A DNA stretch of 64,000 bases from Candidatus Poseidoniaceae archaeon (GCA_016777125.1 JADHSC010000005.1:6345-70344), one strand, 5' to 3'. Numbered from the stretch's first letter, positions 1,769-57,486 are shown. The notes: generated by a model from the sequence alone, not told the origin. Numbers and translations: made by a program.

Positions 1769-4240
1769 ATGCAATCAAAGCGTGCATACGTTCTCATCGG
1801 TCTGCTCATGTGCTCGGTACTGATTCCAGGCATACAAGCTACTGAGGGTAGGGATGCACCACAGTGCCTTTCAGTAACCGAATCAACGCTGTCATCTCAA
1901 GTTGCTGTAGCCAATGGTGCATGCATGCGTTTTGACCTCGGAACCCTCCAACCTGGTGATGTCTATGACTTCTCGATTACCGTCATTGATGACGCACTCG
2001 ACGTTCTTGTTTTCGATGAATCAGGATTGCAGCCTTACCTCTTAGGTCAATCATATCGTTCTACATTCCAACAAGTTCCTTCGACCGAATCTGCAAATGG
2101 TCAATACGAATTTCATTGGAAAGTACCTTCCTCGATCAATGCCAAATCATGGACAGTGATCATCGACAATCTTGCTCATGATGGTGATCAAGGACAAGGT
2201 GACCAAGGTGGTGTTGATGGACGGATTTCCATGACGGTCTCGGAATTAACAGATACTCCATGGACGCCTTATCATGATCTCGTTGGCATCATTCCAGATG
2301 GCCATGTGACTCTTCTGGAGGGAACCTCTTTGCAACTTGAGGAAGGAACAACAATAGCCGTAACTGCTTGGTCCCTCCAAGGATTTGCAGATGTGTACTT
2401 ACAAACTGATTCGATGAATGCAAACTATCTTTCGGGTCAATCAAATGTAGCCCTAACAGGGGCCTCACTTGTTGGTGTTGATGGAACTTCTTCGTTCAGT
2501 TGGGTCGTTCCATCTGCTCTTGCGAATCAACCTCTCAAATTGGTTGTTGATAACACTGAAGATCCTGATGGTCAAGGAGATGGTTCAACGAACCTAAGAG
2601 TAACAATTCGTGTTCAACTCGTTCCTGTCATTCAGGCTCAATTCGTTGCAGAAAACACCACGGTTGCAATGAATACATTGGTTGGATTCGATGCTGCCTC
2701 AACTCCAAATAATCTCGGCCAAATATCACAATATACGTGGGATTTTGATTCCACAATCGATGGTAATGGTGATGGTGACTTCATCAACGACGTCGATGCA
2801 ATTGGCCTTACTTCAGAAGCGCAGTGGACCTCTCCTGGTGAACGAATCGTTACATTAACTGTTCTTGGACAGAGTAGTTTCGATCGTCAAGAACAAACCA
2901 TTACCGTGAATGATATTATCAATCCAGTGCCTCGAATTACCGGAACAACGGCCTCCTCTTCATCTGCTACACCAGTCTCTGGTAGTTGGAGAATCGCTTA
3001 CGCAAACACCCTTGTTTTGACTTGCAATTCAAGTTCGGATGATGATTCAATCTCTTCGTGTTCATGGTCTCTCGATGGTGCTCCTTACAATCAACAGACA
3101 ACGGTTTCCTTCAATTGGAGCACGATTGGAGAACACGTCGTTGGCCTTACTGTCTTTGATGGGAGCGGTAATAGCGCTTCAACACAGGTGGATGTTCGAG
3201 TTGTAGATGGTTCAATACCTGTAATTGATGACTTCTTTGTTTCTCAATTCAAGAACTCACTCGAAGAGGGTCAAATCCAAACGTACTCAATCAACGCAAA
3301 CGATGTTTACGACTCCGCATCAAACCTTCGATATCACTGGGACATCAATCCATCAGAAGATACCGATCAAAACGGAAATCCAACGGATGATCCTGATTAC
3401 ATTGGGCCCAACGTTGATTTGTTATTCGATACAGCGGGGACAAAAACAGTTGTTGTAACGGTCTTTGATGCTTCAAATAATACTGACACTCGAACCTTTA
3501 CAATCGTCGTTGAGGAGTCGGTCGAATCGAGCACAAACTTTGGATTAATCGCCGTAGTTTTGTTCATTTTTGTTGTAACATTGTCAATATCTTTCATTGG
3601 ATACCGTCGCTGGCAGTCCTCAATTGCAGTTGGTTTGTTGACAGGCCGCGGCCTTTCAGACTCTGAAGCGAAGGCACACATGACAATGGTTCGTCAATCT
3701 CAAAAGTTGCCACTCTTTGCTAAAGCCATCCAACTTGCAGGACTTGATGTTGGTGAAGTTGTTACCCAAGATCAACAAGAACAAGCTCGTAAGGAAGCAG
3801 AACTTCAATCGATTTATGGAAATGGAGAAGTCGAAGAAATCCCCCAGGCTCAGTTCGCTCCAAAGAGAGAGATTAGCCAAGCAAGTTCGCAAGCAGCGGC
3901 TGAAGCAGCGGCTCTGTTCTTCGATGACGCCCCCTCCGCCCCTGCACCAGTTATCATCCAAGACCCTGACGATGCTCTCCTTCGAGAGCTAGGGTCGATG
4001 AATGAAAAGCCTTCCCAAACCCCTCAATCCGGTGGTATTCAGTTGCCAGAAAATTTGGCTCCTGCTGTCGAACATCCACTTCCAACTCCTGAAGTTGTGG
4101 AAGTGGAAAAACCATCCAATTTACTCAAAGGCTCTTGCAACAGTTGTTCTTTGAAATTCCAAGTACCTATGCCAGACGGTGTGAATGAAGCAATTGTTGT
4201 GTGTCCATCATGTTCTGAAGAACAACTCTTCCAACGCTAA
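1769..4240 (+). CDS. secreted/membrane-anchored surface protein: signal peptide, PKD-like repeats, single TM, acidic cytoplasmic tail ending in a zinc ribbon
   Basis: Signal peptide MQSKRAYVLIGLLMCSVLIPGIQA. At least three PKD-like repeats (e.g. VVGLTVFDGSGNSAS and TKTVVVTVFDASNNTD). TM helix FGLIAVVLFIFVVTLSISFIGY. C-terminal CNSC-x17-CPSC. Confidence 0.7.
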   Translation: MQSKRAYVLIGLLMCSVLIPGIQATEGRDAPQCLSVTESTLSSQVAVANGACMRFDLGTLQPGDVYDFSITVIDDALDVLVFDESGLQPYLLGQSYRSTFQQVPSTESANGQYEFHWKVPSSINAKSWTVIIDNLAHDGDQGQGDQGGVDGRISMTVSELTDTPWTPYHDLVGIIPDGHVTLLEGTSLQLEEGTTIAVTAWSLQGFADVYLQTDSMNANYLSGQSNVALTGASLVGVDGTSSFSWVVPSALANQPLKLVVDNTEDPDGQGDGSTNLRVTIRVQLVPVIQAQFVAENTTVAMNTLVGFDAASTPNNLGQISQYTWDFDSTIDGNGDGDFINDVDAIGLTSEAQWTSPGERIVTLTVLGQSSFDRQEQTITVNDIINPVPRITGTTASSSSATPVSGSWRIAYANTLVLTCNSSSDDDSISSCSWSLDGAPYNQQTTVSFNWSTIGEHVVGLTVFDGSGNSASTQVDVRVVDGSIPVIDDFFVSQFKNSLEEGQIQTYSINANDVYDSASNLRYHWDINPSEDTDQNGNPTDDPDYIGPNVDLLFDTAGTKTVVVTVFDASNNTDTRTFTIVVEESVESSTNFGLIAVVLFIFVVTLSISFIGYRRWQSSIAVGLLTGRGLSDSEAKAHMTMVRQSQKLPLFAKAIQLAGLDVGEVVTQDQQEQARKEAELQSIYGNGEVEEIPQAQFAPKREISQASSQAAAEAAALFFDDAPSAPAPVIIQDPDDALLRELGSMNEKPSQTPQSGGIQLPENLAPAVEHPLPTPEVVEVEKPSNLLKGSCNSCSLKFQVPMPDGVNEAIVVCPSCSEEQLFQR

Positions 4241-12600: not shown

Positions 12601-14177
12601 TTTACAACGATGGAAACACAGAGATTGGGTACGATTTATTCTTGCAAGCTCCGTCTGGATGGAGTGCAGGATTCCAAGATCTTGGAAGCGAACCAGGCGC
12701 ATCTTCCGGTTCGACAGGTCTTATTACAAAGCAGGGGCAAAAGGATGTGGAATTACAATTCATTCCTCCACAAGTGTCGACTGCAGCAGGAGCTGAACGT
12801 ATGGTGCGTCTAACTGCGATTTCTCAAACAGACCCTTCTCAAACGTGGGAAATTGATATTCCCATCCGTGTTATGGAAGTTCGGGAAGTTGAGATTTTAC
12901 TTGAATCGAACATTGGAACACCTCGCCCAGATGCAACATTGAATCTCTTGTTTACGATTGAAAACCGTGGAAATGTCGACATTACATTCAACCCGAGTAT
13001 GTCTCTACCAACTGGATGGCAAGTTCAATCAACCCTTCAGCCAATTGAGATGGCATGGACGGACAATTCGAAAAATATCCTCATCAGCATCGTTGGAAAT
13101 GGTGATGCAATTTCAGGTCAACTCACGCTCAATCTCGACAACGGCTCAGACCGGTATTCATGGAATACTCAACTTGAAGTTCTGGCATTACCTCAACCAG
13201 AATTAACATTCAAAAGTTTAGACTTTGAAGATGGGAGAACCTTTGATCATCCATTTGGTCCAGGGGCTCATCCTGCTGATCAAGAACTCATCTTCACATG
13301 GTTATTGACCAATGATGCTGAAACAGTGTGGAGGCCTGATATATCCATCTCAGTTTCCCAAGGGCTGTTCGGAGATTGTCTCGATGTTACACAGGTTGCA
13401 TCAGGCGATGTCGTGCCAGTTGTTTGCTCGATTATCATACCATCCACCATAGAGGTTGGTTCCCAGCCTGATTTCAGTTTCACACTTTCGGGAGATGGTG
13501 TTTCACTCGTTGAAGGAACAAGTCTCCTTGTCGCAGAAAGTCGCGGGGTTGATTGGAAGATTACAGGACTTTCAACCATAGATGACTCAGGATCTGGGAC
13601 GATTCAGGTTCGTTTGACCAATACGGGAAATGTTCAACTTTCACACAGGCTTGAACTGCAAACGACTGAAGGACTAACAGCGTCATTAGTCGAGGAAGAT
13701 ATCGTTAACATGGTCGCTGGTGATTCGCAACAATTTACTGTGGTTGTCACAGGTTTAGCCAGTGGATCACAGCAGATCACGTTTCAGCTAACAGGAACCC
13801 AAGAGGTATCGACTCCGGCGACAACTGTTGACATTGATGTGACCGCTTCGTTTAGCGAAACAGCTTCAAACAGTCAAACACTCTTGTATTCAAGCATAGG
13901 AATTACTCTTCTTGCAGTAATCCTTCTTGGCGGCATTTTAGCCCGTTCAAAGAAAGAATCAGACGTCGTTTCTCCGGAACAAAAAGCCCTTCCTTCAATT
14001 GTTCAACAACCTGCAGTCATGTGTTGGTCATGTCATGGTCCAATCACTGGACCAATGCAAGGATGCCCTGGCTGTGGCGCACGATATCATACAAAAGGTA
14101 CTGAAAATTGTGATGCTCAAAGTCTTGAAGCCTGTGCGAATTGTGGAGCGAGTACAGAACAGTTCGTACTTGCATAA
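9696..14177 (+). CDS. subtilisin-like (S8) serine protease fused to multiple CARDB-like Ig-fold repeats, TM anchor and cytoplasmic zinc-ribbon tail
   Basis: Signal peptide. Catalytic triad motifs VAVADSGLD (Asp), HGTHVACTV (His) and GTSMATPNAAG (Ser). Repeated NPGAS/NAGN CARDB-like modules. TM helix IGITLLAVILLGGILA. Tail with CWSC-x10-CPGC and C-x8-CANC. GGAGGAG RBS 7 nt upstream of the ATG. Confidence 0.8.
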   Translation: MRHQWRPALGILLILLLSPWSSLIQTEEEESSALMGDEFEQFSIRTDAYSDFVGELDATIGHEQRPVEANSRIGVFTIHGLETSRPLSSDVLEPRNDVRLLLVNNERNLLDVRSELSEVQGLEVREYISPSGLLVQGTVDGFDSAMGVDGIEGQLLVPLAMFLDDVFLDTMLFEQETAAIYGQEVRLEGWRSEQTLDTISIHDASGSSIEQDLNDVAILAMDEVVKLDDGRYRGLLSVDDILDIVRQPSVMWLRFEPQMAFSNDQSKNHMKITTMRSYFTTDLDGSGQIVAVADSGLDEDHGDFGTRVVGNFDVIGDGSTADKHSGHGTHVACTVLGDGTKGGYAGVAPSADLYFQAMENDNTGNFQSPSLNYLLNTAYNSGARIHTNSWGSSAASNQGKYTSESEDVDDRANNYDRVYNGVEGLTILFAAGNDGPNAGTVGSPSTAKNSVTVGNHQARYNGAPDNLMSGSSRGPTDDGRIKPDIIAPGGYVRSCRAQEAQDIAGSSWQSTWYLEYTGTSMATPNAAGASALIREYLLEIAQRPSPQGALIKALLVLGAQDINTRDIPNNDEGWGRVNLKETLAPSQGRGIWVDDRSVLSNTGQSKSYVFNVTFANSQLKTVLAWSDARGSRFSNNQLVNDLDLEVESPDGTIYLGNDFANGRSTTGGTKDDVNNLEVVLIDTAMKGIWTVRVKDGMHGGSNTQPFAIAVSGQGVNDLRPDPQVVANSMLLNVSIPQVGDQVRLTTEVFNAGNIKAESVDLAFVIDGVEEDRKTVDINPGASRQSTWYWTPSQSGTATLELKIDPDDTIDEIQENNNLLTTIVDVTAPGVKVTSNVTEQVVQFASQTTASWNLTLENTALIETNASIDILGVSRVSDGTTVPWYVGMTASNFTLQGKGKASISVTIVYPEAPEPGMYEINVVGIDVDNAITYPYQLYLHVLDIPEFRIEYDYEIVPVHPANPTNLSVRVYNDGNTEIGYDLFLQAPSGWSAGFQDLGSEPGASSGSTGLITKQGQKDVELQFIPPQVSTAAGAERMVRLTAISQTDPSQTWEIDIPIRVMEVREVEILLESNIGTPRPDATLNLLFTIENRGNVDITFNPSMSLPTGWQVQSTLQPIEMAWTDNSKNILISIVGNGDAISGQLTLNLDNGSDRYSWNTQLEVLALPQPELTFKSLDFEDGRTFDHPFGPGAHPADQELIFTWLLTNDAETVWRPDISISVSQGLFGDCLDVTQVASGDVVPVVCSIIIPSTIEVGSQPDFSFTLSGDGVSLVEGTSLLVAESRGVDWKITGLSTIDDSGSGTIQVRLTNTGNVQLSHRLELQTTEGLTASLVEEDIVNMVAGDSQQFTVVVTGLASGSQQITFQLTGTQEVSTPATTVDIDVTASFSETASNSQTLLYSSIGITLLAVILLGGILARSKKESDVVSPEQKALPSIVQQPAVMCWSCHGPITGPMQGCPGCGARYHTKGTENCDAQSLEACANCGASTEQFVLA

Positions 14178-14202: not shown

Positions 14203-17112
14203 TTGATAGGTCAACACCTCCCCGTAAATAGGAGAGGGATTTTCTTGAGCAGAACATCTGGCAGCAAACACCTTGCGATTTTGTTTATTTCGCTCATGGT
14301 AATCTCCATGATGCCCCTATCAGTCCCTACCGTTTCTGCGGATGAAGGGAGGGATGCGAACATTCGCCTGACAGTTAATCCATCCGAACAAAATATCAAT
14401 CCTGGAGAATCTGGGGAATACACAGTTCGAGTTTACAATGATGGATCGACTCCAGTAACAATTCAATTGAGTACAGCGGAAGAAGGAACTCAAGAATGTG
14501 GGGCATACACCTCATCCATTACCCAAATCAGTGGCGCAATTGAATCAGGTTCCTATGAAGAAGCGACCATGACTGTTACACTAACGGTCAATGCAGAATC
14601 ATCTTGCGACACGACCGTTTCAGCGACTGCAACAGAATCTCCAGATCCTCCAGAAATACCAGGACAACCTGTCACTAAAACTTCAACAGTGACGACAACC
14701 GCTGGCGATGGATCTGGCAACGCACTTTTCGGAGTTGATTTGTCAATGGTCGTTTCGAGTAAGACATGGGGCGGTGAAGAGACGACAGAATGGACTCTCG
14801 TTGTTGAAAACACCGGCCAACAACAAACAGATGTCAATCTCGTAGTCGATGAGGTTACAGATGGTGCTTGTTCAAACCCAGGCAGTCTTACGCCATCGCT
14901 ATCGGAAACATCGGTCTCACTTGGTGCAAACGAAACAGAAGATGTCATTGTTTCTCTTGACATAGATAACGAAGAAGAAGCCGATAAGTATTGCTGGGAG
15001 ATTACTGGAACAGTCTCTTCTGACCCGACAGGCAATTCTTCTGATACTCAAGAATTTGATATTACAGTCCCCGTTTTGAAGGAATGTGATTTAACTCTCT
15101 CAAAATCAACATTGAGCATCGAGCCTGATGCTGATGCTACACTAAAGGCCATATTTACAAACGAAGGTAACTCTGATTGGACTATTCAAGCTGCTGCTGC
15201 AGGTCCAAAGGCTGGATGGGTTGCATTTGTTGGCGGCACCAGTGGGCTACTGCCATATAGTGGTGGAAGCGGAACCAAGGAATTCAATCTCAAAGTCACT
15301 CCAGATGACTCCGTTATAGCCGGAGAAGAGCAAACCATAACCATCCAAGGGAAAGATGGAACCGCCGTAAAATGCAGTTCAGAACTGACAATCGTCGTAG
15401 GACAGTCCTATGGTGCAACGATTTCAATGACATCCTCCCAACTTAACAACATAGAACCAGGTACGAGTGCGACAACATCTGTCACAGTTGAAAATACAGG
15501 CAATGGTGTTGATAACTTCAGAATTACACCTTCTTCTCTACCAGCGGGATGGAGTGTTGAACTCGATCAGAACGTTATTTCACTCGATTCAAAGCATACG
15601 CCTCAGAGGAAAGACACGGTCGATGTCACCGTCTCTCTACCAACAGATGCGTTAGCGACTGAGGTCGTGAACATCGTACTTTCAGTCTCGCCTTCATCAG
15701 GTGGTCAAGCCTACGATGAAGTGACTCTTGCAGTCTCTGTTGCAGCTGTTCATGAGTTTGAGGCAATATCGACAGCAATGACGCAAACTGGTAAGAATAA
15801 TAATGAGGTCAAATTCCCATTTGAAATCGATAACATTGGAAACGTGGAAGATAGTTTCAGACTAAGCGTTATCAGCCAAACGGCCACTCCAGGATGGTCT
15901 TTTTACTTCGAGGATGCTGCAGGTAATCGATTTACTGAAATCGCAGTCGATGCTCGTACCTCCAAGCAAATTTTCTGTGTTGTTACAGTTACAGATTCCG
16001 ATGAATATACTACTTTGACCATCAGAGTTACCAACAAAGGTGATTCCAATAGCATTGATGAAGATTCGGACGGTATTCCAGACAATCAACGTGAGTTGAA
16101 ATTCACAGCTTTCCTAACGACCCGGGACTATGCAATGGATGTTCGTCTTGAAAATGGTGGGCTTGATGGAAGAACTGGCGAATTAATTCTCGCTCCAGGT
16201 GATGATGAAACAATCGGTCTCTGGCTGAGGAATATGGGTAATGGTGATGACATTGCAATGATTGAACTCACAGGTCTTACAGGCATAGCCACACGAACAG
16301 TATATTCAACTGGCTTGCCCATTGGTGACGAATTAGCCATTCCGTTCGGGTATGGGATCTGGGATGAGAACAACAGCCGTTTCGTTACCGATGCATCGGG
16401 AGCTCCGTATCTTGAAAATACAGCAAATGCTGCAGAAGAGGAAATGTACTTCACACTTAATCTCAGTCAAGGCCATAGCGTCAAGCCTTATGAGATGTAT
16501 CTCGAACTCAAAATCGATGTTAATGAAGCGACTTTGACTGGTGAGGGAGGCAATCTCAACATCGTTGTTACAAGTAAATCTAACGCTGCAAACCGTAGTG
16601 GGACGGCAACAGTTTCCCTGAGTGTCAAAGAGATTTTCAATCTTCAAATCCTCCAACCTACTCAAGATTCGTTCGAAATAACATACCCTGAGCCTTTGAA
16701 GTTTGATGTTCAAATTCGTAATGATGGAAATGTTCGGACAATGACTGAAATCTTTTCTTCAGACAATCTTCGTGGTTGGATGGTCACCCTAGAGGAACCT
16801 GTTAACGATAATGACTGTGAATTGATAGAGGTTAACCGTCTTGAATGTTGGATTGATCAAGGCGAAACCAAGAATGTTACTGTAATTGTCAAATCACCTT
16901 ACGATGCAGAATTCAAAGATACGTTTGATTTCACCATCTCTGCCCAACCCGAGGAAATTGGAGTTATCGGGCGTACGAACCAACAATTCGATGTCACAGG
17001 TGACGTTGAATCATCGCTCTTCGGATTTGCAGAGGATGCCACAGTTGCTGTGGTTGGTGGTGGGTTCATCTGCCTCATTCTTCTCGGATTCATTATTAGC
17101 CGCCGTAGTTGA
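14203..17112 (+). CDS. secreted surface protein with CARDB-like repeats and a C-terminal TM anchor (PGF-CTERM-like variant)
   Basis: Signal peptide LAILFISLMVISMMPLSVPTVSA-DEG. Repeated NPGESGEYTVRVYNDG-type modules. C-terminus GGGFICLILLGFIISRRS*. TTG start preceded by AGGAAAGGA. Confidence 0.65.
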   Translation: MIGQHLPVNRRGIFLSRTSGSKHLAILFISLMVISMMPLSVPTVSADEGRDANIRLTVNPSEQNINPGESGEYTVRVYNDGSTPVTIQLSTAEEGTQECGAYTSSITQISGAIESGSYEEATMTVTLTVNAESSCDTTVSATATESPDPPEIPGQPVTKTSTVTTTAGDGSGNALFGVDLSMVVSSKTWGGEETTEWTLVVENTGQQQTDVNLVVDEVTDGACSNPGSLTPSLSETSVSLGANETEDVIVSLDIDNEEEADKYCWEITGTVSSDPTGNSSDTQEFDITVPVLKECDLTLSKSTLSIEPDADATLKAIFTNEGNSDWTIQAAAAGPKAGWVAFVGGTSGLLPYSGGSGTKEFNLKVTPDDSVIAGEEQTITIQGKDGTAVKCSSELTIVVGQSYGATISMTSSQLNNIEPGTSATTSVTVENTGNGVDNFRITPSSLPAGWSVELDQNVISLDSKHTPQRKDTVDVTVSLPTDALATEVVNIVLSVSPSSGGQAYDEVTLAVSVAAVHEFEAISTAMTQTGKNNNEVKFPFEIDNIGNVEDSFRLSVISQTATPGWSFYFEDAAGNRFTEIAVDARTSKQIFCVVTVTDSDEYTTLTIRVTNKGDSNSIDEDSDGIPDNQRELKFTAFLTTRDYAMDVRLENGGLDGRTGELILAPGDDETIGLWLRNMGNGDDIAMIELTGLTGIATRTVYSTGLPIGDELAIPFGYGIWDENNSRFVTDASGAPYLENTANAAEEEMYFTLNLSQGHSVKPYEMYLELKIDVNEATLTGEGGNLNIVVTSKSNAANRSGTATVSLSVKEIFNLQILQPTQDSFEITYPEPLKFDVQIRNDGNVRTMTEIFSSDNLRGWMVTLEEPVNDNDCELIEVNRLECWIDQGETKNVTVIVKSPYDAEFKDTFDFTISAQPEEIGVIGRTNQQFDVTGDVESSLFGFAEDATVAVVGGGFICLILLGFIISRRS

Positions 17113-21633: not shown

Positions 21634-21644
21634 GGTGATTGAAT

Positions 21645-23006
21645 ATGCCAACACACCCTCAAGCAAAACCGAACTTCCGAAATCTCTTCTGGTATCCGTT
21701 TAAGATTACTCTGATTACTGCCTTGAGAACATTCCCTCTCATGGGTAAATTGTTTCCAAAGAAATTGGGTATGGGCTATCACAATACAACCCATCCAGAG
21801 TTTTTGGATGAAGCGAGTGCACAACGTGCAAAGAGTCGTTCACAATACAATGACATCACCAATCAAGAATTTGCTCCTGACCGAGTTACATCCGATCTCT
21901 TCCCGACACTTTGGAAGCCTCAAACAGTTCAGTACCCGTACGAACGCCTTGAGGACATGGAGCCTTGGCTCTTCGTTCCAGGTAATTACAATGGCCGTAT
22001 TGGTGTCATTTGGGAAACCTGTACTGCATGTAAGATGTGTGTGAACATCTGTCCAAACGACTGTCTTCACATGACAACAGAACTTCGTGTTGACGTTCTC
22101 GACAACGCAGAAGGTGAATACGATGGATACGGTGCTGAATTGGAAGTTGGCGGCTATGCTGCTAAGTTCCGTGAAGAAGTTGTAGAAGAACTCGAATCAT
22201 TCGATCTCATCACTGCTCACACGGCACCTCCTGCAGAATGGCGCTTTGGACAAGTCCTAGATCTGAGTGGCAGCACTGCTACTGTTCGCTGGAATGACTC
22301 TGGCCAAGAAGAAATGATTGAGCAATCTGATTTACGAACTGCTGATAATCAAATCGTATCAGGTCGTATTGACATTGGACGATGTATGTTCTGTGGTCTC
22401 TGCATGGAAGCATGTGGTTTCACTTCATTCTTCATGACCAACGAATACGATGGAATGTCAGGCTTCTCTCGACAAGACCTTTGGTTTGATGCAAGCAGAA
22501 CACGTGTTCTTCCTTCCGTTCATCAAGAAGCTGTTGACGGAGAACTTGCAAAGCGTGCTACAAAGGAACGAGATAAGCGTGCAAAGAAGGCTGCTAAGGC
22601 TGCAAAAGCCGCTGTACCCGAAGTAGTGGTCGTAGAACCACCTCAAGTTGTCGAAGTAAAGGCCGAAGTCAAGGCTGAGACTGAAGACGACAAGCCCATG
22701 AGTAAAGAGGAAAAGAAAGCAGCCGATTTGCAACGAGTCAAGGAACGGTCAAAAAACATTGATTTCAATATTCTCGGAACGGCTAGTGCTGAAGAAAAAG
22801 ATGACCTTCAAAGCATCAAGGGCATCGGGCCGTTTATCGAAGAGAAATTAAACGCTCTCGGCATCTATACGTTCTCACAAGTCAGTAAAATGACCAGTGA
22901 GTTAGAAGATCAAGTCAACGAAGCCATCGAATTCTTCCCTGGTCGTGTCAAGCGGGACGAATGGACCAATCAAGCCAGCGACCTGCTCGAGAAGGGGGAT
23001 GCCTGA
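21645..23006 (+). CDS. nuoI: NADH-quinone oxidoreductase subunit I (2x[4Fe-4S]) with a ~290-aa extension: Lys/Ala/Glu-rich linker plus C-terminal helix-hairpin-helix module
   Basis: Ferredoxin motifs CTACKMCVNICPNDC and CMFCGLCMEACG. C-terminal KRAKKAAKAAKAA...LQSIKGIGPFIEEKLNALGIYTFSQV. ATG lies 5 nt after GAGGTGAT. Confidence 0.8.
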   Translation: MPTHPQAKPNFRNLFWYPFKITLITALRTFPLMGKLFPKKLGMGYHNTTHPEFLDEASAQRAKSRSQYNDITNQEFAPDRVTSDLFPTLWKPQTVQYPYERLEDMEPWLFVPGNYNGRIGVIWETCTACKMCVNICPNDCLHMTTELRVDVLDNAEGEYDGYGAELEVGGYAAKFREEVVEELESFDLITAHTAPPAEWRFGQVLDLSGSTATVRWNDSGQEEMIEQSDLRTADNQIVSGRIDIGRCMFCGLCMEACGFTSFFMTNEYDGMSGFSRQDLWFDASRTRVLPSVHQEAVDGELAKRATKERDKRAKKAAKAAKAAVPEVVVVEPPQVVEVKAEVKAETEDDKPMSKEEKKAADLQRVKERSKNIDFNILGTASAEEKDDLQSIKGIGPFIEEKLNALGIYTFSQVSKMTSELEDQVNEAIEFFPGRVKRDEWTNQASDLLEKGDA

Positions 23007-23857: not shown

Positions 23858-26104
23858 ATGGGAACAACAACAGACATACCAGAAATCACATCTTCCTTTA
23901 CGGAATATGCCATCTTCATCGTTCTTTTACCGATGCTTGCATTCCCAGTCATTCTCTTCCTTGGACGATTGTTCAATGGAAACGAAACCTGGGTTAAGTC
24001 TGCAAAAGAAGGTGGACTCATCGCTCTACCAATTATGGTTGCAAGTTTCATTCTTTCATTAATTCTCATTGTCGAATTTATCGGAAGTGGAACGGGCTCA
24101 TACTACATTGGTGATTGGCTTAGTTTCGGATGGATTGGAGCAGATGGAATGACCATCGAGGAGGAGGTCTTTGGTGTCGGAATTTACATCGATCACGTTA
24201 CAGTGATGCTCTTATTCGTCGCATCATTCCTCTGTATGCTCATCAATATCTTCAGTATTGGATACATGAATACAGATCCAGTAAACGACAACAGAAACCA
24301 TCGTTTCTATGCTGAATTCGTTCTTTTCTGTTCAGGTATGCTCGGAATGGTTCTTGCTGACTCCTTCCTTTGGTTGTTTATCTTCTGGGAATTAATGGGT
24401 CTATGTTCCTATCTTCTCATTGGATTTTACTACGAACGACCAAGTGCAGCTTATGCTGCAAAGAAAGCATTTCTTACAACCCGTGTTGGTGACGTTTTCC
24501 TCGTCATTGGATTGGTTATGCTTTGGAATATGTTTGGCTCCCTTGACTACTCAGTCGTCTTCAACCCCGATAACATTGCAGCAGTTGATGCAGGCGAATT
24601 ACAAATGGCGCTTGGAATGATGTTCATTGGTGCAGTTGGTAAATCTGCTCAATTCCCACTCCACGTTTGGCTTCCAGACGCAATGGAAGGGCCAACACCC
24701 GTTTCCGCTCTTATTCACGCTGCAACCATGGTCAACGCAGGATTGTATCTCGTTGCCCGTATGTTCCCATTCTTTGGAGCCCCTGCAATGGCCGGCGAAC
24801 TGGTTGATCTTGCATTCATCATCGCAGCAATCGGTGGAATTACCGCCGTCATGGCTGCTGCAATCGCCTTTGTTCAAGATGATTTGAAGAAAGTACTCGC
24901 ATATTCTACGATGAGTCAACTCGCATACATCTTCACAGGACTTGGTGCAGCGTTATGGCTCGCTAACACACCAGGAATGGAAAAGTACGCAATCGTCGCC
25001 TTTGGTGCAGCTCTGTTCCACCTCTTTAACCACGCAATGGCAAAAGGGATGCTGTTCATGGCAAGCGGTTCAGTCATTCACGAAATGCATCATGCACATC
25101 ATGACGTCCACCATCACGACGACCATGGAGATGACCACGGAGACGACCACAATGACGATCACCACGATGAATTCGATGCTCAATCGATGTCAAATATGGG
25201 CGGTCTTGCATCCAAGATGCCAATTACTGCTACAGCAATGCTTGTAGGTTCAGCTTCAATCATGGGTCTACCACTGATTGGTGGATTCTGGTCCAAAGAA
25301 GGTATCATCGCCAACGCTTGGAGAGTTGCCCTTGAAGATCCGCGATTCTTCCTACCTGCTTTCTGTGTTCTTCTTGGTGCAGCAATGACTGGTTTCTATA
25401 TGTCGAGAATGTGGCTCAAGACCTTTGCAGGAAAGCCAAAGACAGAAGTTGCAGAACATGTCCATGAACAAACACCATGGATTCCTATTCCTTTGGTTAC
25501 ATTGACATTCGTCACGCTCTCAAGCGTCATTCTTGCGGGAATGATGTTTACACATTGGTCAAGTGATAGTGGGTATGCATTCTTCAGTGAGAAGGGATTG
25601 ATCGATGGTCTGATTTACGAATTTGAACACGTCTTCCTCAATTCTGATGCGTTCTACTTCGTACTGACCTATGTTGCAATCTTCATCGGAGCCATCGTTG
25701 GACCTGGTCTTGCAATGGCATTGTATGGTGGAGCACTCAAAGATGGTGAGAAAGCCAAGGGATGGATGCAACCGATCATCAATCTCTCTGCTCGTGTAAA
25801 CGAGAAGCGTGGTTTCGACAACAGCGCTTGGGCTGATTCAAGCCTATCAGTTGCCCTCAAGGAACGACTCTACTTCGACAAATGGTACGATACTGCAATG
25901 CTCAAACTCGTTGCAGGATTTGCTGTTCTCAGCGCAACCTTCGATCGTAAGGTCATCGATGGAACAATCAAGACCATCGAACGTTCTTCACAGAAGATTT
26001 CACTCAGCGTTCGTAAACTTACAACAGGGTCTGCTCGTGATTACATCATGATGGCGGCATTAGGTGTCCTTGTCATCTATGCAATGCTGGAGGTGATGAT
26101 TTGA
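23858..26104 (+). CDS. nuoL: NADH-quinone oxidoreductase subunit L (antiporter-like), with His/Asp-rich loop insertion
   Basis: 748-aa polytopic protein with conserved Mrp-antiporter-like regions (WLPDAMEGPTPVSALIHAATMV). TGAGGTGAT RBS. Insertion HEMHHAHHDVHHHDDHGDDHGDDHNDDHHDEF. Confidence 0.9.
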   Translation: MGTTTDIPEITSSFTEYAIFIVLLPMLAFPVILFLGRLFNGNETWVKSAKEGGLIALPIMVASFILSLILIVEFIGSGTGSYYIGDWLSFGWIGADGMTIEEEVFGVGIYIDHVTVMLLFVASFLCMLINIFSIGYMNTDPVNDNRNHRFYAEFVLFCSGMLGMVLADSFLWLFIFWELMGLCSYLLIGFYYERPSAAYAAKKAFLTTRVGDVFLVIGLVMLWNMFGSLDYSVVFNPDNIAAVDAGELQMALGMMFIGAVGKSAQFPLHVWLPDAMEGPTPVSALIHAATMVNAGLYLVARMFPFFGAPAMAGELVDLAFIIAAIGGITAVMAAAIAFVQDDLKKVLAYSTMSQLAYIFTGLGAALWLANTPGMEKYAIVAFGAALFHLFNHAMAKGMLFMASGSVIHEMHHAHHDVHHHDDHGDDHGDDHNDDHHDEFDAQSMSNMGGLASKMPITATAMLVGSASIMGLPLIGGFWSKEGIIANAWRVALEDPRFFLPAFCVLLGAAMTGFYMSRMWLKTFAGKPKTEVAEHVHEQTPWIPIPLVTLTFVTLSSVILAGMMFTHWSSDSGYAFFSEKGLIDGLIYEFEHVFLNSDAFYFVLTYVAIFIGAIVGPGLAMALYGGALKDGEKAKGWMQPIINLSARVNEKRGFDNSAWADSSLSVALKERLYFDKWYDTAMLKLVAGFAVLSATFDRKVIDGTIKTIERSSQKISLSVRKLTTGSARDYIMMAALGVLVIYAMLEVMI

Positions 26105-29392: not shown

Positions 29393-30055
29393 ATGGGAAG
29401 ACGTCATGAAGAAAAAGTGGACGTAGAAGAACTCGCCCGTCTGGAAAATCCAGAGGGTTCCTCGGGAAAGATTCGTGTAAAGCTTCCAAACGGTGGTAAG
29501 AAGCGCGGAGAGTTTGGATTCAAGGGCGAAATGTTTGCTCTTGCTGAAGAGATTCTCGGTGGTCGCCGTGTAACAGTCCTCTGTGCTGATGGGGAGACCC
29601 GTATGGCACGTATACCAGGGAAAATGCGTCGTCGACAATGGGTTCGTGAAGGCGACCTCATCATTGTCTGGCCATGGGATTTCCAAGATTCAAAAGCTGA
29701 TGTAAAGCATCGTTATACAAAGACTCAGGCTATGTATTTGTCAAGAAAGCAAGTGCTTCCGGAAGTTGTTGATATGTTTGGCATGAATGATCGTGTTGAC
29801 GATGATGACGACGATGACTTGTTCGGTATCTCTGATGCACCTGAGGTCGTTGAAGAAGACGATGATGAAGATCTGTTTGGTGATGATGACGACGATGATG
29901 ACGATTTGTTTGGAAGCGATGATTCTGTCGAAGAAGTCGCCGAAGAGGCCGTTGAAGAGCCAGTAGTGGTTGAGGAACCAGCAGAATCAGTTGAACCAGA
30001 ACCGCTTGATGATGATGACGATGACGACGATGATATCGACGCATTGTTCGCTTAA
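29393..30055 (+). CDS. eif1a: translation initiation factor aIF-1A with long poly-acidic C-terminal tail
   Basis: S1/OB core RVTVLCADGETRMARIPGKMRRRQWVREGDLIIVWPWDFQDSKADVKHRY. About 110-aa tail with three DDDD-DLFG repeats, ending DDDDDDDDIDALFA. Confidence 0.85.
   Translation: MGRRHEEKVDVEELARLENPEGSSGKIRVKLPNGGKKRGEFGFKGEMFALAEEILGGRRVTVLCADGETRMARIPGKMRRRQWVREGDLIIVWPWDFQDSKADVKHRYTKTQAMYLSRKQVLPEVVDMFGMNDRVDDDDDDDLFGISDAPEVVEEDDDEDLFGDDDDDDDDLFGSDDSVEEVAEEAVEEPVVVEEPAESVEPEPLDDDDDDDDDIDALFA
29790..30050. repeat. GAT/GAC/GAA codon low-complexity repeat encoding the poly-Asp/Glu tail of aIF-1A
   Basis: Runs of gatgatgacgacgatgac are visible directly in the DNA. Confidence 0.7.
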
Positions 30056-31879: not shown

Positions 31880-33712
31880 TCAATCCCGCTGTTGAAGCCA
31901 AGCTACAACAAAGCCAGCACAAAGGAGTGCAAACATGGTTGGAGCGAACGATGGAACAAGGCCAGGGGAGGAAACGTCAGCACCCGTAACGACCATGTAA
32001 TGGTCGTTGTTTATCTCACTGTTTTCATCGATGAGATTTGAAGGGTCGATACGTACACGCAGGTCATATTGTCCAGTATTTGGAACGGTGTAGTTCCATG
32101 TGAGATATGCTACACCGGTGCCAAGGGAACCTGCAAGAAGTGTTTGTGCTTGCATAACAGTCCATTCTGTTGCTGCATTACGATCGGCAGGAGCAGCTTC
32201 TAAAATCACAGCAACTGATCCAGGATACGCCTTGTTGGAACGGATTTCGCCAGAGATTGTGATGTTACCAAATGTGTCACCGGGACGCACAACAAGTTTG
32301 TTGACGTCAGTTTCAGTCACATTCCAATAGAGGTCGAGTCCTGGCATGACTTGGAATGCTCTAGGTTCTGTTGTTTCGCTGTTTCCAGCTTCGTCTACAA
32401 CAGTCGCTCTAAGCATGAGGTACTGACGAGACTTTGTTGCCCAATTTGCTAATGCAAGGTCTCTATCAAGGCCAGTGCCGGGAACTTCAAGCCATTGGCC
32501 TGAGAGGTCTGGTGTTAGGCCAACACCGTTTAGATCGAATCCATATTGTAATGAAATCTCACTTTCGTCGATACCTGAGAGTAAGTCATACGCTGCAAAG
32601 GAAATGTTGGCTTGACCGACAAGATCGGTTGTAAGTGCATCAACAGTCCATCCCACCATTTCAGGAATAGTGGTGTCAACTTGCACAGTTGCTGTAATTG
32701 TGTTTCCAACGTTACCAACCTTATCCGTTGCTCGTAATTCGAGTGTATGATTTCCCTCTTCAAGCGTAATTGAATGTGTATTCGTGGTGATAGCGGTCCA
32801 TGTTCCAGAATCAATTTTCAGTTCCACAGTCTCGACACCAGATCCAGTTCCATCATTGGCACCATCCAGAACACCAGATAGTTCCACATTTGTAGAGGAT
32901 TGCCATGTTGAACCACTTCCAACTGTGATGGAGGACATGGTTGGTCCAGTACGGTCGATACCAATGAATAATGTCGATGTATTACTCAATCCGGAATCGT
33001 CGTAAACAGTAAGTCGAGGATTCCAAGTTCCTTCAGAAAAACTTCCGCTTGACCAATCCCAGCCGTATGTAAGACTCGACGGTCCATCAGTGGAAGGTGA
33101 CCCAGGTCCTGGGACATTCTGTAGAGTTGCTCTGTTGAAATCATCATCAGAAACACCGTATCGGAATTCTAAGGTACCAGTCTCAGCGATGCTAAACCAT
33201 GCTCTATCAGAACTACTTGTTCCAGCCCCAACATTTGGAGATAGAACAGTGAATGCAGTAATATCAGGGACGTGATTATCAATTGTGAATTCTCCTGTTG
33301 TGGTCAACGTAGAGTCGTCTACATCTGTATCCCAGCCAGTAGCACGCATTGTGTATGTGCCATTCGCAACCGAAGTGGAATCAAAATTGAAGAGCCAAGG
33401 TGTACCTGTGAGATTTGTAAGTGTGGAATATGCACCTCCTTGTGATGCAATTTCGACCAAGATCGAATCAATGGTCCCTGTCCCTGAAATGCTGAACGTA
33501 ATCGTCTTCAATCCTGTAACAGATTCCGATTGAACTGGGCCGTTTGAGAATGCGATACTCGCTGCTGATGAGGAGTGTATTACTGCCTCTTCTTCAAGCT
33601 GTAAATCGTTGTTAATGTCAAGTGGGAAAATGGAAATCAGCAAGAGGGAAATGATGCCGACTGCAACCGCTCTGCCTCCCATGCTTTTCTTACAGATGCG
33701 ACCTCCCTTCAA
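31880..33712 (-). CDS. secreted surface protein with Ig-like/CARDB-like repeats and a C-terminal TM anchor
   Basis: N-terminal signal/anchor AVAVGIISLLLISIFPL. Beta-rich repeats. C-terminus PTMFALLCAGFVVAWLQQRD*. Confidence 0.65.
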   Translation of the reverse strand: MKGGRICKKSMGGRAVAVGIISLLLISIFPLDINNDLQLEEEAVIHSSSAASIAFSNGPVQSESVTGLKTITFSISGTGTIDSILVEIASQGGAYSTLTNLTGTPWLFNFDSTSVANGTYTMRATGWDTDVDDSTLTTTGEFTIDNHVPDITAFTVLSPNVGAGTSSSDRAWFSIAETGTLEFRYGVSDDDFNRATLQNVPGPGSPSTDGPSSLTYGWDWSSGSFSEGTWNPRLTVYDDSGLSNTSTLFIGIDRTGPTMSSITVGSGSTWQSSTNVELSGVLDGANDGTGSGVETVELKIDSGTWTAITTNTHSITLEEGNHTLELRATDKVGNVGNTITATVQVDTTIPEMVGWTVDALTTDLVGQANISFAAYDLLSGIDESEISLQYGFDLNGVGLTPDLSGQWLEVPGTGLDRDLALANWATKSRQYLMLRATVVDEAGNSETTEPRAFQVMPGLDLYWNVTETDVNKLVVRPGDTFGNITISGEIRSNKAYPGSVAVILEAAPADRNAATEWTVMQAQTLLAGSLGTGVAYLTWNYTVPNTGQYDLRVRIDPSNLIDENSEINNDHYMVVTGADVSSPGLVPSFAPTMFALLCAGFVVAWLQQRD

Positions 33713-33798: not shown

Positions 33799-36618
33799 AT
33801 GGCAAGAGGGGCGTATGTGGTCTGCTGTGTATTGCTGATGATGACTTCATTGGTCCCAACCTCTGTGAGTTCATACGATAGCGGTGGCATTCAAGCATCA
33901 GATTCCACTCTCAGTATCATGCCTGCAAGTCCTACGTCTGGTGGTTCAATTACAGGTTCATTGACGCTTTCGAACACGAATTCAGAAAAAGCGTTCGATG
34001 TTGAATATTCATTCTACAAAAACGGAATATCTACAGCCAACCGCCTCATTACAAGCACTGTCAATATCGAAGCTAATGGTTTTGAAATTGTGACGGCACA
34101 ATGGGACAATCTGGTCGAGGGTGAAAACAAACTTTGGGTCACGTATTCCTACAATGGACAAACCGAAGTTGAGTTTTATCATTCCTTTACCGTACTGGGA
34201 TTGCCGAATCTCAGAGTTACAGAAACAATTCTGACTCCAAGCACTGATCTTCATTCTGGCGATATTATTTCACTGAGTGCAAAGGTAAGTAACATCGGCT
34301 CAGTTGACGCTCAAGCATCATATCTTGGAATTAATTACCCTGGTTCGATTGAAGATGTAGAACTTCAAACTCCAGCGATTAATGCCAGCGAATATGCATG
34401 GGTCAACACGACCTTTACCGCACCTGTATCAGGTTCTTACGATCTCATCCTAACTCCAGACGCCCGAGATGAGGTATTGGAATCAACCGAACAAGGAAAA
34501 GATGAAATCGTTCAATTTGTCATTGAACCAAGAATGGATCTATCACATGTTGGCGAGATACTTATTGTGCCCACAGAGGGTTCCCTTACTGGTCCATGGG
34601 CCGTCTCAGGTACGATTGCAAGAGAGTCAGGAGAAGGCACACTTGACGTTCCAATGGTCATTGAACTACGAGAAGGTGCCTCCACTGTCCGTTCGCTCCA
34701 ACCGTTCACCGTAAGTGTCTTTGGAACAGGATATTCTCAACATGCATGGACAACATCGATTGAAAGTGCGAACATTGCTGGATTGAGCAACGGTCAATAT
34801 TCGCTTGTTGCTCGTATTGACCCATTCCAGACGGGTGGGTTTGTGCAAGAGAGTATGGAAAATGACGACCATGTTACAACGTTCACTCTTCCCGAGATAC
34901 CAGACGTTTATGTTGACCCACTTGCTTTACCAAACTTGACTTCTGTCTCAGCTGGTTTCCCAATCGATTGGTCGATGACGGCCACGAATACTGGCGACAT
35001 TTCTGTTGGCGGTAACTTCCTCTATTCATGGGAAGGTCAAGAGTTCCAATCTGGTCTCATCACTCTCCAGTCAGGTAGCAGTTACACCTACACAGTTTCC
35101 TTGTCAACCTTGTTGGGTGCTCATACAGCGGAACTTGATGTTCAATGGCAACCTTCAGTTAATTCATATGATCGAAATCCAACCAATAGTCGTGCTTCAG
35201 GGTCCGTCCTTGTCGAAGCGAATCTGCAACTTGAATGGGATGAGGATACGCAGGTTCTGGTTGACAAAGATGGCGAACTGGCAACCTTCCCACTTGATTC
35301 AGGCGAAGAATACACACTCAGTATTTCTATGAAATCAACCCGAGGGTCAGGCGATGTCACTATTACATGCAAGAACAGTCAGGCAACATGGTCAGTTTCT
35401 GAGATTGTTATTGAAAATCCTGGGGACCGAGAGGAAGTATCCTGTACATTCAAAGCCTCAGGAAAGTTGACAATTGTTCAGTTGGTTCATTCTCCTTCTT
35501 CCACAATGACCGAGACGTTCGAGCGTTCTTACTCAACAGCGTTTATTGATGGTGGAAATGGTGCAAACGAAGAGAATAGCGGTACGGGAACTGCGGTTCT
35601 GATGTTCATTGGAGCACTTGTCCTCATTGGATTCCTCGTCGGTGCAATTCTGCTTACAAGAGACAGAGAAGATGAAGTGGAACGAGATATTTTCAATTAT
35701 TGTCCCTCCTGTGATGGCGAACTTGAAGGCGACGAAAATCGTTGCCCGCATTGTTCGTTCAACCTTCGTAAAGCACGTTCACAGTTCCACGAATGTTCTG
35801 CATGTGGAGAGTCTGTACCTGATCTCATGGAGAATTGTCCATACTGTGGAACAGAGCAAGATGTTCGTTCATATTTCGAGCAACGAGAACGCCGCATCCG
35901 TGAAGTCCCCGAAGAAAAGGAATTGGTTTCACTCCCCGAAGAAGACGAAAACGAAATCGTTAGCGGTACCGAAGATTTCGCTTCTGCTGTCAAAGAATTT
36001 GGGTATGATGAAGATAATCTTGAAGATGAGTGGGATGAGAATGTTGTTGCTGCTGAAGAAGAAGTTACAGCTGCATATGATAGACGGTATGCTGATGAGA
36101 TCTCGATGGAAGATATGACCGATGAGGAAATTGCTGAAATGGAGAATCAGGTCGTTACAACTCTGAAGACTGCAAAGGAAGCATTCGAAGGTCATGATTT
36201 GGATGCATTCCTACCGGATAAAGAGGATCTGAAGACTCTCAAGGACGATGGAACCGACAAGGATGGCGATGCATGGAATACACTCTCTGCAAGCGATGCT
36301 GACATCCGAGGAGACTTGTTCGAAATCACTGGTGAAAAAGGTGTATTGCCTGGCGACAAGGTTGTTGTTGGTATGGGCTTGACAGATAGTTCACTTGCAG
36401 GAAATGAGATCACTGAGGCTTCTCACAATTTCTTAGTTGAAGATGATTCTAAACCACTTTCAACAGATTCGTCTGAACCGAAGAAGGCTGCAAAGCCACG
36501 TCGACGTCCACGCCGAAAGGCAGAATCGGCTAAGGAGACTGCAGATTGTGGCGCCTGTGGTGCAGTCATTGCGGCAGATGCAAAGGAATGCCCAACCTGT
36601 GGTGCAAAGTTCGAATGA
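33799..36618 (+). CDS. surface protein: signal peptide, CARDB-like repeats, TM, cytoplasmic tail with three zinc ribbons
   Basis: Signal peptide VVCCVLLMMTSLVPTSVSS. TM helix TAVLMFIGALVLIGFLVGAILL. Tail carries CPSC-x9-CPHC, CSAC-x9-CPYC and, at the C-terminus, CGAC-x9-CPTC. Confidence 0.7.
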   Translation: MARGAYVVCCVLLMMTSLVPTSVSSYDSGGIQASDSTLSIMPASPTSGGSITGSLTLSNTNSEKAFDVEYSFYKNGISTANRLITSTVNIEANGFEIVTAQWDNLVEGENKLWVTYSYNGQTEVEFYHSFTVLGLPNLRVTETILTPSTDLHSGDIISLSAKVSNIGSVDAQASYLGINYPGSIEDVELQTPAINASEYAWVNTTFTAPVSGSYDLILTPDARDEVLESTEQGKDEIVQFVIEPRMDLSHVGEILIVPTEGSLTGPWAVSGTIARESGEGTLDVPMVIELREGASTVRSLQPFTVSVFGTGYSQHAWTTSIESANIAGLSNGQYSLVARIDPFQTGGFVQESMENDDHVTTFTLPEIPDVYVDPLALPNLTSVSAGFPIDWSMTATNTGDISVGGNFLYSWEGQEFQSGLITLQSGSSYTYTVSLSTLLGAHTAELDVQWQPSVNSYDRNPTNSRASGSVLVEANLQLEWDEDTQVLVDKDGELATFPLDSGEEYTLSISMKSTRGSGDVTITCKNSQATWSVSEIVIENPGDREEVSCTFKASGKLTIVQLVHSPSSTMTETFERSYSTAFIDGGNGANEENSGTGTAVLMFIGALVLIGFLVGAILLTRDREDEVERDIFNYCPSCDGELEGDENRCPHCSFNLRKARSQFHECSACGESVPDLMENCPYCGTEQDVRSYFEQRERRIREVPEEKELVSLPEEDENEIVSGTEDFASAVKEFGYDEDNLEDEWDENVVAAEEEVTAAYDRRYADEISMEDMTDEEIAEMENQVVTTLKTAKEAFEGHDLDAFLPDKEDLKTLKDDGTDKDGDAWNTLSASDADIRGDLFEITGEKGVLPGDKVVVGMGLTDSSLAGNEITEASHNFLVEDDSKPLSTDSSEPKKAAKPRRRPRRKAESAKETADCGACGAVIAADAKECPTCGAKFE

Positions 36619-53023: not shown

Positions 53024-53159
53024 ATAGAATCCTAAGCCGTTCCTCTTTTGAAGGCGTCGGAGTTACGCTTGAATGAGAATTCTTACAACGATACAAATCT
53101 ACAAAAATGCTGAGGCAATCCCTAGAAGAGTATATGATGTGTATATCGGAGGAGAAATC

Positions 53160-53867: not shown

Positions 53868-53871
53868 TTCT

Positions 53872-57483: not shown

Positions 57484-57486
57484 AGT

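Follow-up and report, generated by a model that had tools for sequence, protein, structure and literature searches.

The window analysed here is a 64,000-nt stretch of DNA from a Poseidoniaceae (Marine Group IIa) archaeon, and all coordinates count from its first letter. It contains four genes whose products carry paired CxxC knuckles resembling zinc ribbons: the three envelope proteins P1, P3 and P6, and the second ATPase of a MacB/FtsX-type ATP-binding cassette (ABC) system. Translation confirmed that the four open reading frames (ORFs) and their CxxC motifs exist as an earlier note on this DNA had described them, including the ribbon CPAC-x11-CPSC with which the downstream ABC ATPase ends. 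The spacers between paired knuckles, given there as x9-17, are in fact x10-18. Among the 255 six-frame ORFs of at least 60 amino acids (aa), the pattern CxxC-x6-25-CxxC is confined to these four proteins. When residues were shuffled within the proteins of a 57-gene set (Cys content 0.93%), the expectation was 0.086 proteins and 0.10 motifs, whereas the real sequences have 8 motif starts in 4 proteins; none of 2000 shuffles exceeded 2.

Topology was assigned with a Kyte–Doolittle hydropathy scan and the positive-inside rule. P1, P3 and P6 each possess a signal-peptide-like N-terminal segment and one strong C-terminal transmembrane (TM) segment. The 15 residues preceding this segment contain no Lys or Arg, and the 15 residues after it contain two to three, with the basic stretches YRR, RSKK and TRDR found past the TM of P1, P3 and P6, respectively. 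Hydropathy and flank charges are thus those of type-I (N-out, C-in) single-pass proteins in all three cases. Across the three ectodomains, Pfam recognises PKD, subtilase S8, CARDB and Ig-like domains. Two hydrophobic segments recur in the P1 orthologues, and the TM position is kept among the P6 representatives. In addition, the same ribbon type is present on the ABC ATPase, which is a soluble cytoplasmic subunit. Hydropathy, the basic residues after the TM and the extracellular-type ectodomains place the Cys motifs in the cytoplasm, in line with the earlier note, and a topology with the Cys outside the cell is not borne out.

In three further envelope proteins of the window that have a signal peptide, the C-terminal TM is followed by just 1–7 residues, without a Cys motif. 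The architecture, which had been put forward as recurrent, therefore recurs in three of the six signal-peptide envelope proteins and not in all of them. The zinc modules thus represent an addition to particular proteins rather than a general requirement for anchoring. The cytoplasmic tails had also been described as acidic, which is correct for P6 (26% Asp plus Glu, compared with 13.0% in the window proteome) but not for P1 (13.6%, Pro-rich) or P3 (8.9%).

P1 is composed of a signal peptide (aa 1–24), an ectodomain of ~570 aa with a PKD_4 match (Pfam, 43.8 bits), the TM (aa 592–610) and a 213-aa cytoplasmic tail. The tail starts with a juxtamembrane segment that is more conserved than the distal linker (mean column entropy of 1.49 vs 2.56 in 65 orthologues). 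In the linker, 48% of the columns vary among close homologues and the predicted local distance difference test (pLDDT) value is mostly below 50; Pro accounts for 8.5% of the whole tail. The extreme C-terminus is formed by the ribbon CNSC-x18-CPSC (aa 790–815), the least variable segment of the tail (16% variable columns among homologues of 88–99% identity). The AlphaFold2 (AF2) model of the tail contains the TM helix, short low-confidence helices joined by disordered linkers, and a hairpin pair with a pLDDT of ~72. A fold search with this model was abandoned, as its mean pLDDT of 55 made it unusable. The tail segments outside the ribbon have no Pfam or PDB sequence match.

The conservation of P1 was followed through synteny. 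The metallo-beta-lactamase gene directly upstream served as the anchor because it does not select for the ribbon, and 80 loci from species-representative genomes were obtained, all of them Poseidoniales or Poseidoniaceae metagenome-assembled genomes (MAGs). The closest is a North Sea Poseidoniales MAG with 97% protein identity. A direct search for P1 homologues was discarded as a conservation test, since the 120 matches listed were all 88–99% identical and too close. Every complete gene downstream of the anchor in the 80 loci shows the P1 plan. The four Cys of the ribbon are invariant in 65 syntenic orthologues of 31–95% identity, and in all 65 the module is the extreme C-terminus, with a loop of x17-18. 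Among 44 distinct ribbons, C7, C10, C29, P30 and C32 are invariant, and F14 (the aromatic residue past the first knuckle), the mid-loop P19 and V27 are at least 90% conserved. A census of the architecture in 1.16 Mb of Poseidoniaceae flanks, all from this same syntenic region rather than genome-wide, returned only P1 orthologues and three soluble proteins.

All 44 P1 ribbons match Zn_ribbon_8 and 39 of them match Zn_ribbon_4 (best E = 7e-6; bit scores not listed). For the window copy, the nearest models are Zn_ribbon_8, Zn_ribbon_4 and Brz, and it lies below the cut-off for each of them (Zn_ribbon_4 14.4–14.7 bits, cut-off 30.3); TIGR02098 (cut-off 20.9 bits) gives no match. An assignment to the MJ0042 type (Zn_ribbon_4/5, TIGR02098) was rejected, as the window copy fails the cut-offs of these hidden Markov models (HMMs) and is C-terminal, not N-terminal. 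Its x17-18 spacing is near, but not equal to, the C-x2-C-x19-C-x2-C of the bacterial proteins ZitP and GltJ. Searched against PDB sequences, the P1 ribbon profile gave weak matches only, one of them a partial match to the GltJ/AgmX ribbon (7zok, E = 0.075).

P6 consists of a signal peptide, CARDB and carbohydrate-binding-module (CBM)-like ectodomains, one TM and a 321-aa tail. A search of 1.84 billion cluster representatives yielded 20 full-length representatives of 24–46% identity, which have the same plan. A double ribbon with four CxxC knuckles begins 16 aa past the TM and is present in 18 of the 20 representatives at the same distance from the membrane. It passes the Pfam gathering cut-offs of DZR (PF12773, cut-off 27.3) with 31.9 bits in the full-length protein and 41.3 bits in the tail alone, and those of Zn_ribbon_3 (PF13248, cut-off 27) with 36.7 and 34 bits in the two scans. 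The acidic linker that follows contains the motifs IV.G..DF..AVKEFGYDE..LE.EWD and LSASDA.IR..LFEITGE.GV.PG, visible in all representatives; it has no PDB sequence match, and the tail segments outside the ribbons have no Pfam match. A Lys/Arg-rich patch near the C-terminus is found in most representatives; of the six without the terminal ribbon, five keep it and have a Lys/Arg-rich end. The terminal ribbon itself, CGAC-x10-CPTC (aa 917–934), is present in 14 of the 20, and its C7, C10, C21, C24 and G25 are invariant in 15 sequences. It just misses the cut-offs, with 24.3 bits for Zn_ribbon_3 and 23 bits for Zn_Ribbon_1 (PF13240, cut-off 25). Each representative keeps at least one ribbon. In two P6 orthologues (P0147 and P0156), residues ~630–720 hold a cupredoxin-like domain of ~90 aa in place of the double ribbon; the domain scores 21 bits for Cupredoxin_1, below the cut-off, and is predicted to be cytoplasmic, and both proteins keep the terminal ribbon.

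P3 is a type-I subtilase with a signal peptide, an S8 peptidase domain, CARDB and Ig-like domains, and its module starts ~28 aa past the TM. This region had been described as a ribbon plus extra cysteines. The cysteines are indeed there, but they are not separate spares: together with one His they form a single eight-ligand module of the order C4-H-C3. A profile built from divergent N-terminal fragments found 10 relatives with informative C-termini, 8 of which carry the module, with the consensus C-[WF]-x-C-x10/11-C-x2-C-G-A-R-Y-H-x2-8-C-x5-8-C-x2-C. The eight ligands occur in the order C4-H-C3 in all eight; the first four Cys, the GARYH stretch and two of the later Cys are invariant, and a seventh Cys is always present. 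AF2 predicts a compact, confident domain (pLDDT 83–96). Its best Foldseek matches are rubredoxins (E 0.03–0.1, target-normalised TM-score 0.55–0.66), headed by 6nw1_A (E = 0.029, 0.66), and Pfam rubredoxin-like models score at most 15 bits on the modules. The DZR model gives 16.8–17.4 bits, below its cut-off. The most frequent Pfam match of the P3 tails is Prok-RING_1 (five of seven tails, best 21.1 bits, cut-off 29.1); PHD (15.6 bits, cut-off 24) and RING-like models also appear, likewise below their cut-offs. In BLASTP, the module aligns knuckle-for-knuckle with the sequential double ribbon of P6, which favours a remodelled DZR, and the classification as PHD/RING-like was downgraded after this alignment.

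The ribbon of the ABC ATPase is present in all 120 homologues collected (75–97% identity). The window copy reaches 18.3 bits for DZR, below the cut-off, and some orthologues carry a precomputed PF13248 annotation. In this system, two ATPase genes flank the permease gene, and the zinc ribbon occurs on the second ATPase only. The FtsX/MacB-type permease (53872..57483, plus strand) is very large, with 1203 aa, and contains pentapeptide repeats (Pfam, 52.9 bits) in the long stretch that separates the N-terminal TMs from the FtsX domain at the C-terminus.

Comparison of the four proteins divides their modules into classes. Profile–profile comparison aligns three of them without gaps over both knuckles: the ABC ribbon, the terminal ribbon of P6 and the N-terminal half of the P3 module (probability 87–92%; ABC vs P6 terminal ribbon, hhalign probability 87%). 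These three share the signature CxxC-x10/11-CPxCG[AS][KR][FY]. The P1 ribbon aligns to these short ribbons only with an 8-residue deletion in the loop. The modules can be assigned, from their sequences, to the zinc-ribbon superfamily, with two apparent subtypes (the long-loop type of P1 and the short type) and one derivative. P3 and P6 may descend from one ancestral cassette of a TM plus a ribbon, so that the three envelope proteins, regarded in the earlier note as independent, would be so only in part: P1 has a ribbon of its own kind, but P3 and P6 may not be fully independent. The CxxC pairs are conserved among the orthologues of P1, P3, P6 and the ABC ATPase, and the loss of conservation that would have spoken against functional motifs was not seen. 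This pattern points to genuine selective maintenance of the modules under strong purifying selection. The features are collected in Table 1.

Table 1. Coordinates of the envelope proteins, the ABC ATPase and their putative metal-binding modules in the window
Feature	Position	Strand	Remarks
P1, type-I envelope protein, 823 aa	1769..4240	+	ORF verified by translation
P1 TM helix GLIAVVLFIFVVTLSISFI, then GYRRW	3542..3598	+	Kyte–Doolittle 2.83; AF2 helix, pLDDT ~90
P1 juxtamembrane conserved segment	3599..3748	+	Motifs W..A..LL.GRGL..EA..M and LP.FA.A..AG
P1 flexible Pro-rich linker	3749..4123	+	Short conserved motifs SIYG and AAxAAxLF
P1 terminal putative zinc ribbon LKGSCNSCSLKFQVPMPDGVNEAIVVCPSCSEEQLFQR	4124..4237	+	Cys4 core 4136..4213
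P2, TM-ending envelope protein without Cys motif, 1556 aa	4316..8986	+	Signal peptide; C-terminal TM (hydropathy); no Pfam match
P2b, small bitopic protein, 218 aa	8979..9635	+	Acidic N-terminal segment of ~70 aa, predicted cytoplasmic
P3, type-I subtilase, 1494 aa	9693..14177	+	Verified by translation; start earlier given as 9696
P3 TM, aa 1397–1415	13881..13937	+	Hydropathy; followed by 79-aa tail
P3 eight-ligand Cys/His module CWSC-x10-CPGCGARYH-x6-C-x8-CANC	14022..14144	+	C4-H-C3
TM-ending envelope protein without Cys motif	14203..17112		Hydropathy
TM-ending envelope protein without Cys motif	31880..33712	-	Hydropathy
P6, type-I envelope protein, 939 aa	33799..36618	+	Verified by translation
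P6 TM, aa 600–618	35596..35652	+	Hydropathy
P6 juxtamembrane double zinc ribbon, aa 635–683	35701..35847	+	Four CxxC knuckles
P6 strongly acidic linker, ~230 aa	35848..36492	+	Asp plus Glu 29% over aa 700–900
P6 polybasic patch KPRRRPRRK	36493..36519	+	
P6 terminal short putative zinc ribbon CGACGAVIAADAKECPTC, then GAKFE	36547..36600	+	
Second ATPase of the MacB/FtsX-type ABC system (53073..58479)	57487..58479	+	Verified by translation
ABC ATPase C-terminal short putative ribbon CPAC-x11-CPSC, aa 301–319	58387..58443	+	

P1 belongs to a conserved gene cluster. The order metallo-beta-lactamase–P1–P2–P2b–P3 is kept in every Poseidoniaceae locus long enough to show it, which makes P1 part of a core envelope operon and not a variable adhesin. 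This conservation fits a structural or organisational role of P1 in the envelope. The best-conserved protein of the operon is P2, with 45–56% identity where P1 has 31–46%. The small protein P2b is a candidate neighbour for the tails of P1 and P3.

Several other genes of the window deserve mention. A small operon on the minus strand (44777..46187) combines three genes: one for a ThiF/E1-like protein of 209 aa (45558..46187; 62 bits for Pfam ThiF), one for a JAB-like protein (45016..45561) that contains the motif HxH...S..D and whose 17 bits for Prok-JAB miss the cut-off, and an acidic ORF of 80 aa (44777..45019). Neither an E2 gene nor a gene for a ubiquitin-like protein with a GG terminus was seen. 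A 391-aa protein (37327..38502, minus strand) carries a nuclease domain of the Cas4/PD-(D/E)XK type at its C-terminus (44 and 39 bits in Pfam) and ends in C-x2-C-x5-C. About four TM-like segments are apparently inserted between its N-terminal Cys motif and the nuclease core, and a membrane-embedded Cas4-like nuclease would be unusual. The NuoL-like antiporter subunit (23858..26104, plus strand) carries a His/Asp-rich insert, HHAHHDVHHHDDHGDDHGDDHNDDHHDE, a possible metal-binding loop. The NuoI-like 4Fe-4S subunit (21639..23006, plus strand) contains two CxxCxxCxxxC motifs and, with an additional C-terminal region rich in Lys, Ala and Glu, reaches a length of 455 aa. Moreover, an aIF1A homologue (29393..30055, plus strand; Pfam eIF-1a 71 bits) has a C-terminal extension of ~90 aa that consists mainly of poly-Asp runs.

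We favour, at about an even chance of being right, the reading that the modules are metal-stabilised protein-docking knobs on the cytoplasmic side of envelope proteins. The sequences show that the modules are present, non-random in occurrence and conserved, that hydropathy and the positive-inside rule put them on the cytoplasmic side, that they bear signatures of the ribbon superfamily, and that P1 and P3 lie in a conserved operon. These observations speak for the reading, as do the Pfam matches of P6, the AF2 models of P1 and P3, and an anatomy of conserved knob, variable linker and additional linear motifs that follows the logic of the bacterial proteins ZitP and GltJ. That the metal is zinc, that the modules serve docking and that any partner exists is what we infer from the sequences. 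Zinc is suggested by the sequence class of the modules, and iron, as in rubredoxin, would be possible as well. In P1, and in P6 through its terminal ribbon, the knob would sit on the end of a long flexible tether. The P6 double ribbon and the P3 module, which start close to the TM, would instead be pressed onto the inner face of the membrane. Via the knob, partners in the cytoplasm or at the membrane periphery would position the envelope protein, gather it into clusters or regulate it. The tails beyond the ribbons do not appear to be filler, judging from the conserved motifs in P1 and P6, and these other motifs may take part in binding or, as in GltJ, in a switch within the molecule. The partners of P1 are probably not the same as those of P3, P6 and the ABC ATPase. 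The earlier note had suggested one shared docking or sorting partner; docking is plausible by the precedents of ZitP and GltJ, but a single shared partner is not supported, because the ribbon subtypes differ and some lineages drop the modules.

Several points weigh against docking. The window copies of the P1, P3 and ABC modules lie below every curated Pfam or NCBIfam threshold, and the P1 ribbon profile matches the ribbon of GltJ only weakly and in part. The predicted topology comes from hydropathy and the positive-inside rule and not from a dedicated predictor such as DeepTMHMM or SignalP. Two more distant relatives of P3 do not have the module, their tails being Gln-rich and Cys-free. The terminal ribbon of P6 is lost in 6 of 20 lineages, and since most of these keep the polybasic patch, charge may outweigh the ribbon in this terminal element. 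In addition, zinc ribbons can also serve as nucleic-acid binders and knuckles of the rubredoxin type as iron sites, functions among which the sequence cannot discriminate.

Binding to polyanions is one alternative to docking. Zinc ribbons are classic nucleic-acid binders, and the modules could tether the envelope proteins to RNA, to ribosomes or the nucleoid, or to acidic inner-leaflet phospholipids instead of specific proteins. The patch KPRRRPRRK lies directly before the terminal ribbon of P6 and is retained in most of the ribbon-less lineages, ribosomal eS27, S27e and LysW-type ribbons are among the weak matches of the P1 ribbon profile, and the P3 tails weakly match C1 and PHD-like models, finger classes that bind lipids or peptides. 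Neither the P1 ribbon nor its flanks are basic, however, and polyanions would be repelled by the P6 linker with its 29% of acidic residues over ~230 aa. The database matches all fall short of their thresholds, and searches with the tails gave no signature of RNA or DNA binding. Tethering to nucleic acids or ribosomes, as the earlier note had also proposed, finds neither support nor refutation here; polyanion binding in general we regard as improbable.

A purely structural or topogenic role appears just as improbable. Here, a metal knot would lock the C-terminus, block exoproteolysis or drive homo-oligomerisation, with no heterologous partner involved. Consistent with this, the modules are located at or near the extreme C-terminus (P1, P3, the P6 terminal ribbon and the ABC ATPase) or right after the TM (the P6 double ribbon), and apart from the ligands few positions are invariant (in P1, the residues F, P, V and P). 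Furthermore, ribbon subtypes can replace one another in evolution, and the cupredoxin-like domain takes the place of the double ribbon in two P6 orthologues. Against such a role, the three sibling envelope proteins manage with a TM and a few residues behind it, so that no plug is needed for topology. The length of the tails and the further conserved motifs in them point to more than a cap, and the ABC ATPase requires no topogenic signal.

A third alternative treats the modules as redox or metal sensors, in which Fe(Cys)4 centres or zinc-thiolate switches would report the cytoplasmic state to the envelope proteins and the ABC transporter. The CxxCG...CPxCG knuckles are identical to those of rubredoxin, rubredoxins are the best structural matches of the P3 model, and surface-ocean Poseidoniales face zinc scarcity and reactive-oxygen stress; in spite of these points, we consider sensing quite unlikely. 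The proposal that the P3 module is a membrane-anchored RING/PHD-like binuclear finger, acting as an E3-like adaptor in ubiquitin-like conjugation, is the least credible of all: its invariant ligand order, the PHD-typical H-x2-C spacing in two of the eight relatives, the RING-type Pfam matches, the RING and U-box domains among the Foldseek matches and the ThiF/E1-like gene with its weak JAB-like neighbour in the window are outweighed by profile scores below cut-off, Foldseek E values of 0.17–0.5, a last loop (x5-8) far shorter than in PHD/RING fingers and the alignment with the P6 double ribbon, and the ThiF/JAB pair was rejected as a ubiquitin-like context for P3, as it belongs to another operon at a distance of 31 kb and neither an E2 nor a ubiquitin-like gene was seen.

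The docking interpretation can be extended to the cell envelope as a whole, although we hold the extension itself to be doubtful. The zinc modules might be the intracellular ends of a conserved Poseidoniaceae envelope assembly that couples the surface to a cytoplasmic scaffold or switch, with the P1–P2–P2b–P3 operon, P6 and the MacB-type ABC system as its members. Such an assembly could position proteases or adhesins on particles, or relay surface events inward. In its boldest version, the P3 module would serve as a RING-like adaptor on an extracellular protease. If this were true, a globally abundant archaeon would possess a counterpart, of inverted topology, to the ZitP–PopZ and GltJ–MglAB systems.

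Marine Group II comprises the most abundant planktonic archaea of the surface oceans and has no cultured representative, so that next to nothing is known of its cell envelope (PMC6461757). Conserved cytoplasmic modules that putatively bind metal are found here in a core syntenic operon of the envelope and in at least one envelope protein encoded outside it. As short foldable peptides, these modules are handles for finding what lies beneath the membrane in these cells. If they were only generic stabilising caps, they would represent ordinary domain promiscuity; ribbon domains are promiscuous, and their function here is inferred only.

Ribbons are widely fused to membrane proteins, YdjG of B. 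subtilis being a named example, and the P6 double ribbon is a bona fide Pfam match to the generic DZR and Zn_Ribbon_1/3 (formerly zinc_ribbon_2) families found in such proteins. In seven unrelated DZR-type membrane proteins, the ribbon precedes the TM (five cases) or follows an N-terminal TM hairpin (two cases); none of the seven shows the order signal peptide–ectodomain–TM–ribbon, and none has a demonstrated function. Among eukaryotic type-I receptors, the PA-TM-RING E3 ligases and the CD4/CD8–Lck zinc clasp combine a signal peptide, an ectodomain, a TM and a cytosolic Cys-rich zinc module that recruits machinery. The layout of P3, with its extracellular protease, TM and C4-H-C3 module, resembles that of PA-TM-RING proteins. 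The CD4/CD8–Lck clasp is intermolecular, whereas each module described here has a full ligand set. Pfam and Foldseek searches found no sequence relation and no significant structural relation between the modules and the eukaryotic receptors, and no link was found between archaeal ubiquitin-like machinery and the P1, P3 and P6 genes. In a survey of lineage-specific hypothetical proteins of archaea, many had no features other than TM helices and matches to zinc fingers, which gave no insight into their function (PMC9258230). A literature search returned no description of the architecture in Marine Group II or Poseidoniales. The earlier remark that it is no established named system thus holds for Poseidoniales, but DZR and Zn_ribbon_3 are catalogued families and the combination of a ribbon with a TM is common.

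The closest counterparts are bacterial. ZitP of Caulobacter crescentus is a bitopic regulator of polarity and pili, whose 43-residue cytoplasmic ribbon (C5, C8, C28 and C31) binds PopZ and alone suffices for both PopZ binding and polar localisation (PMC5182065). Similar to P1, ZitP is a single-pass protein with its ribbon (C-x2-C-x19-C-x2-C) at the free end of a linker, of ~60 residues in ZitP, and an extracytoplasmic domain on the opposite side. Its ribbon, however, is N-terminal and belongs to Pfam zinc_ribbon_5, and the protein is of type II; P1 is archaeal and of type I, with a signal peptide of the cleavable type and a C-terminal ribbon that lies below the Zn_ribbon_4/5 cut-offs, and PopZ is an alphaproteobacterial protein. 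In the gliding-motility focal adhesion of Myxococcus xanthus, the cytoplasmic ribbon of GltJ/AgmX has two binding sites to choose from, its own linker and the GTPase-activating protein MglB, and so forms a switch (PMC11135422). GltJ combines a cytoplasmic ribbon, a long flexible linker with motifs, a TM and an extracytoplasmic part, as do P1 and P6 with their tails. It differs in its N-terminal ribbon and in a GYF domain, which is absent from P1, P3 and P6, and the match of P1 to its ribbon is only the partial one noted above. By this analogy, the Poseidoniaceae proteins would extend the principle of membrane-tethered zinc-ribbon docking, known from ZitP and GltJ, to archaea and to the type-I orientation. 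The comparison suggests a known design, a cytoplasmic zinc ribbon on a bitopic protein, which occurs here in type-I, archaeal form within a conserved envelope operon, and which is most likely a mirror-image archaeal version of the bacterial design rather than a new kind of system.

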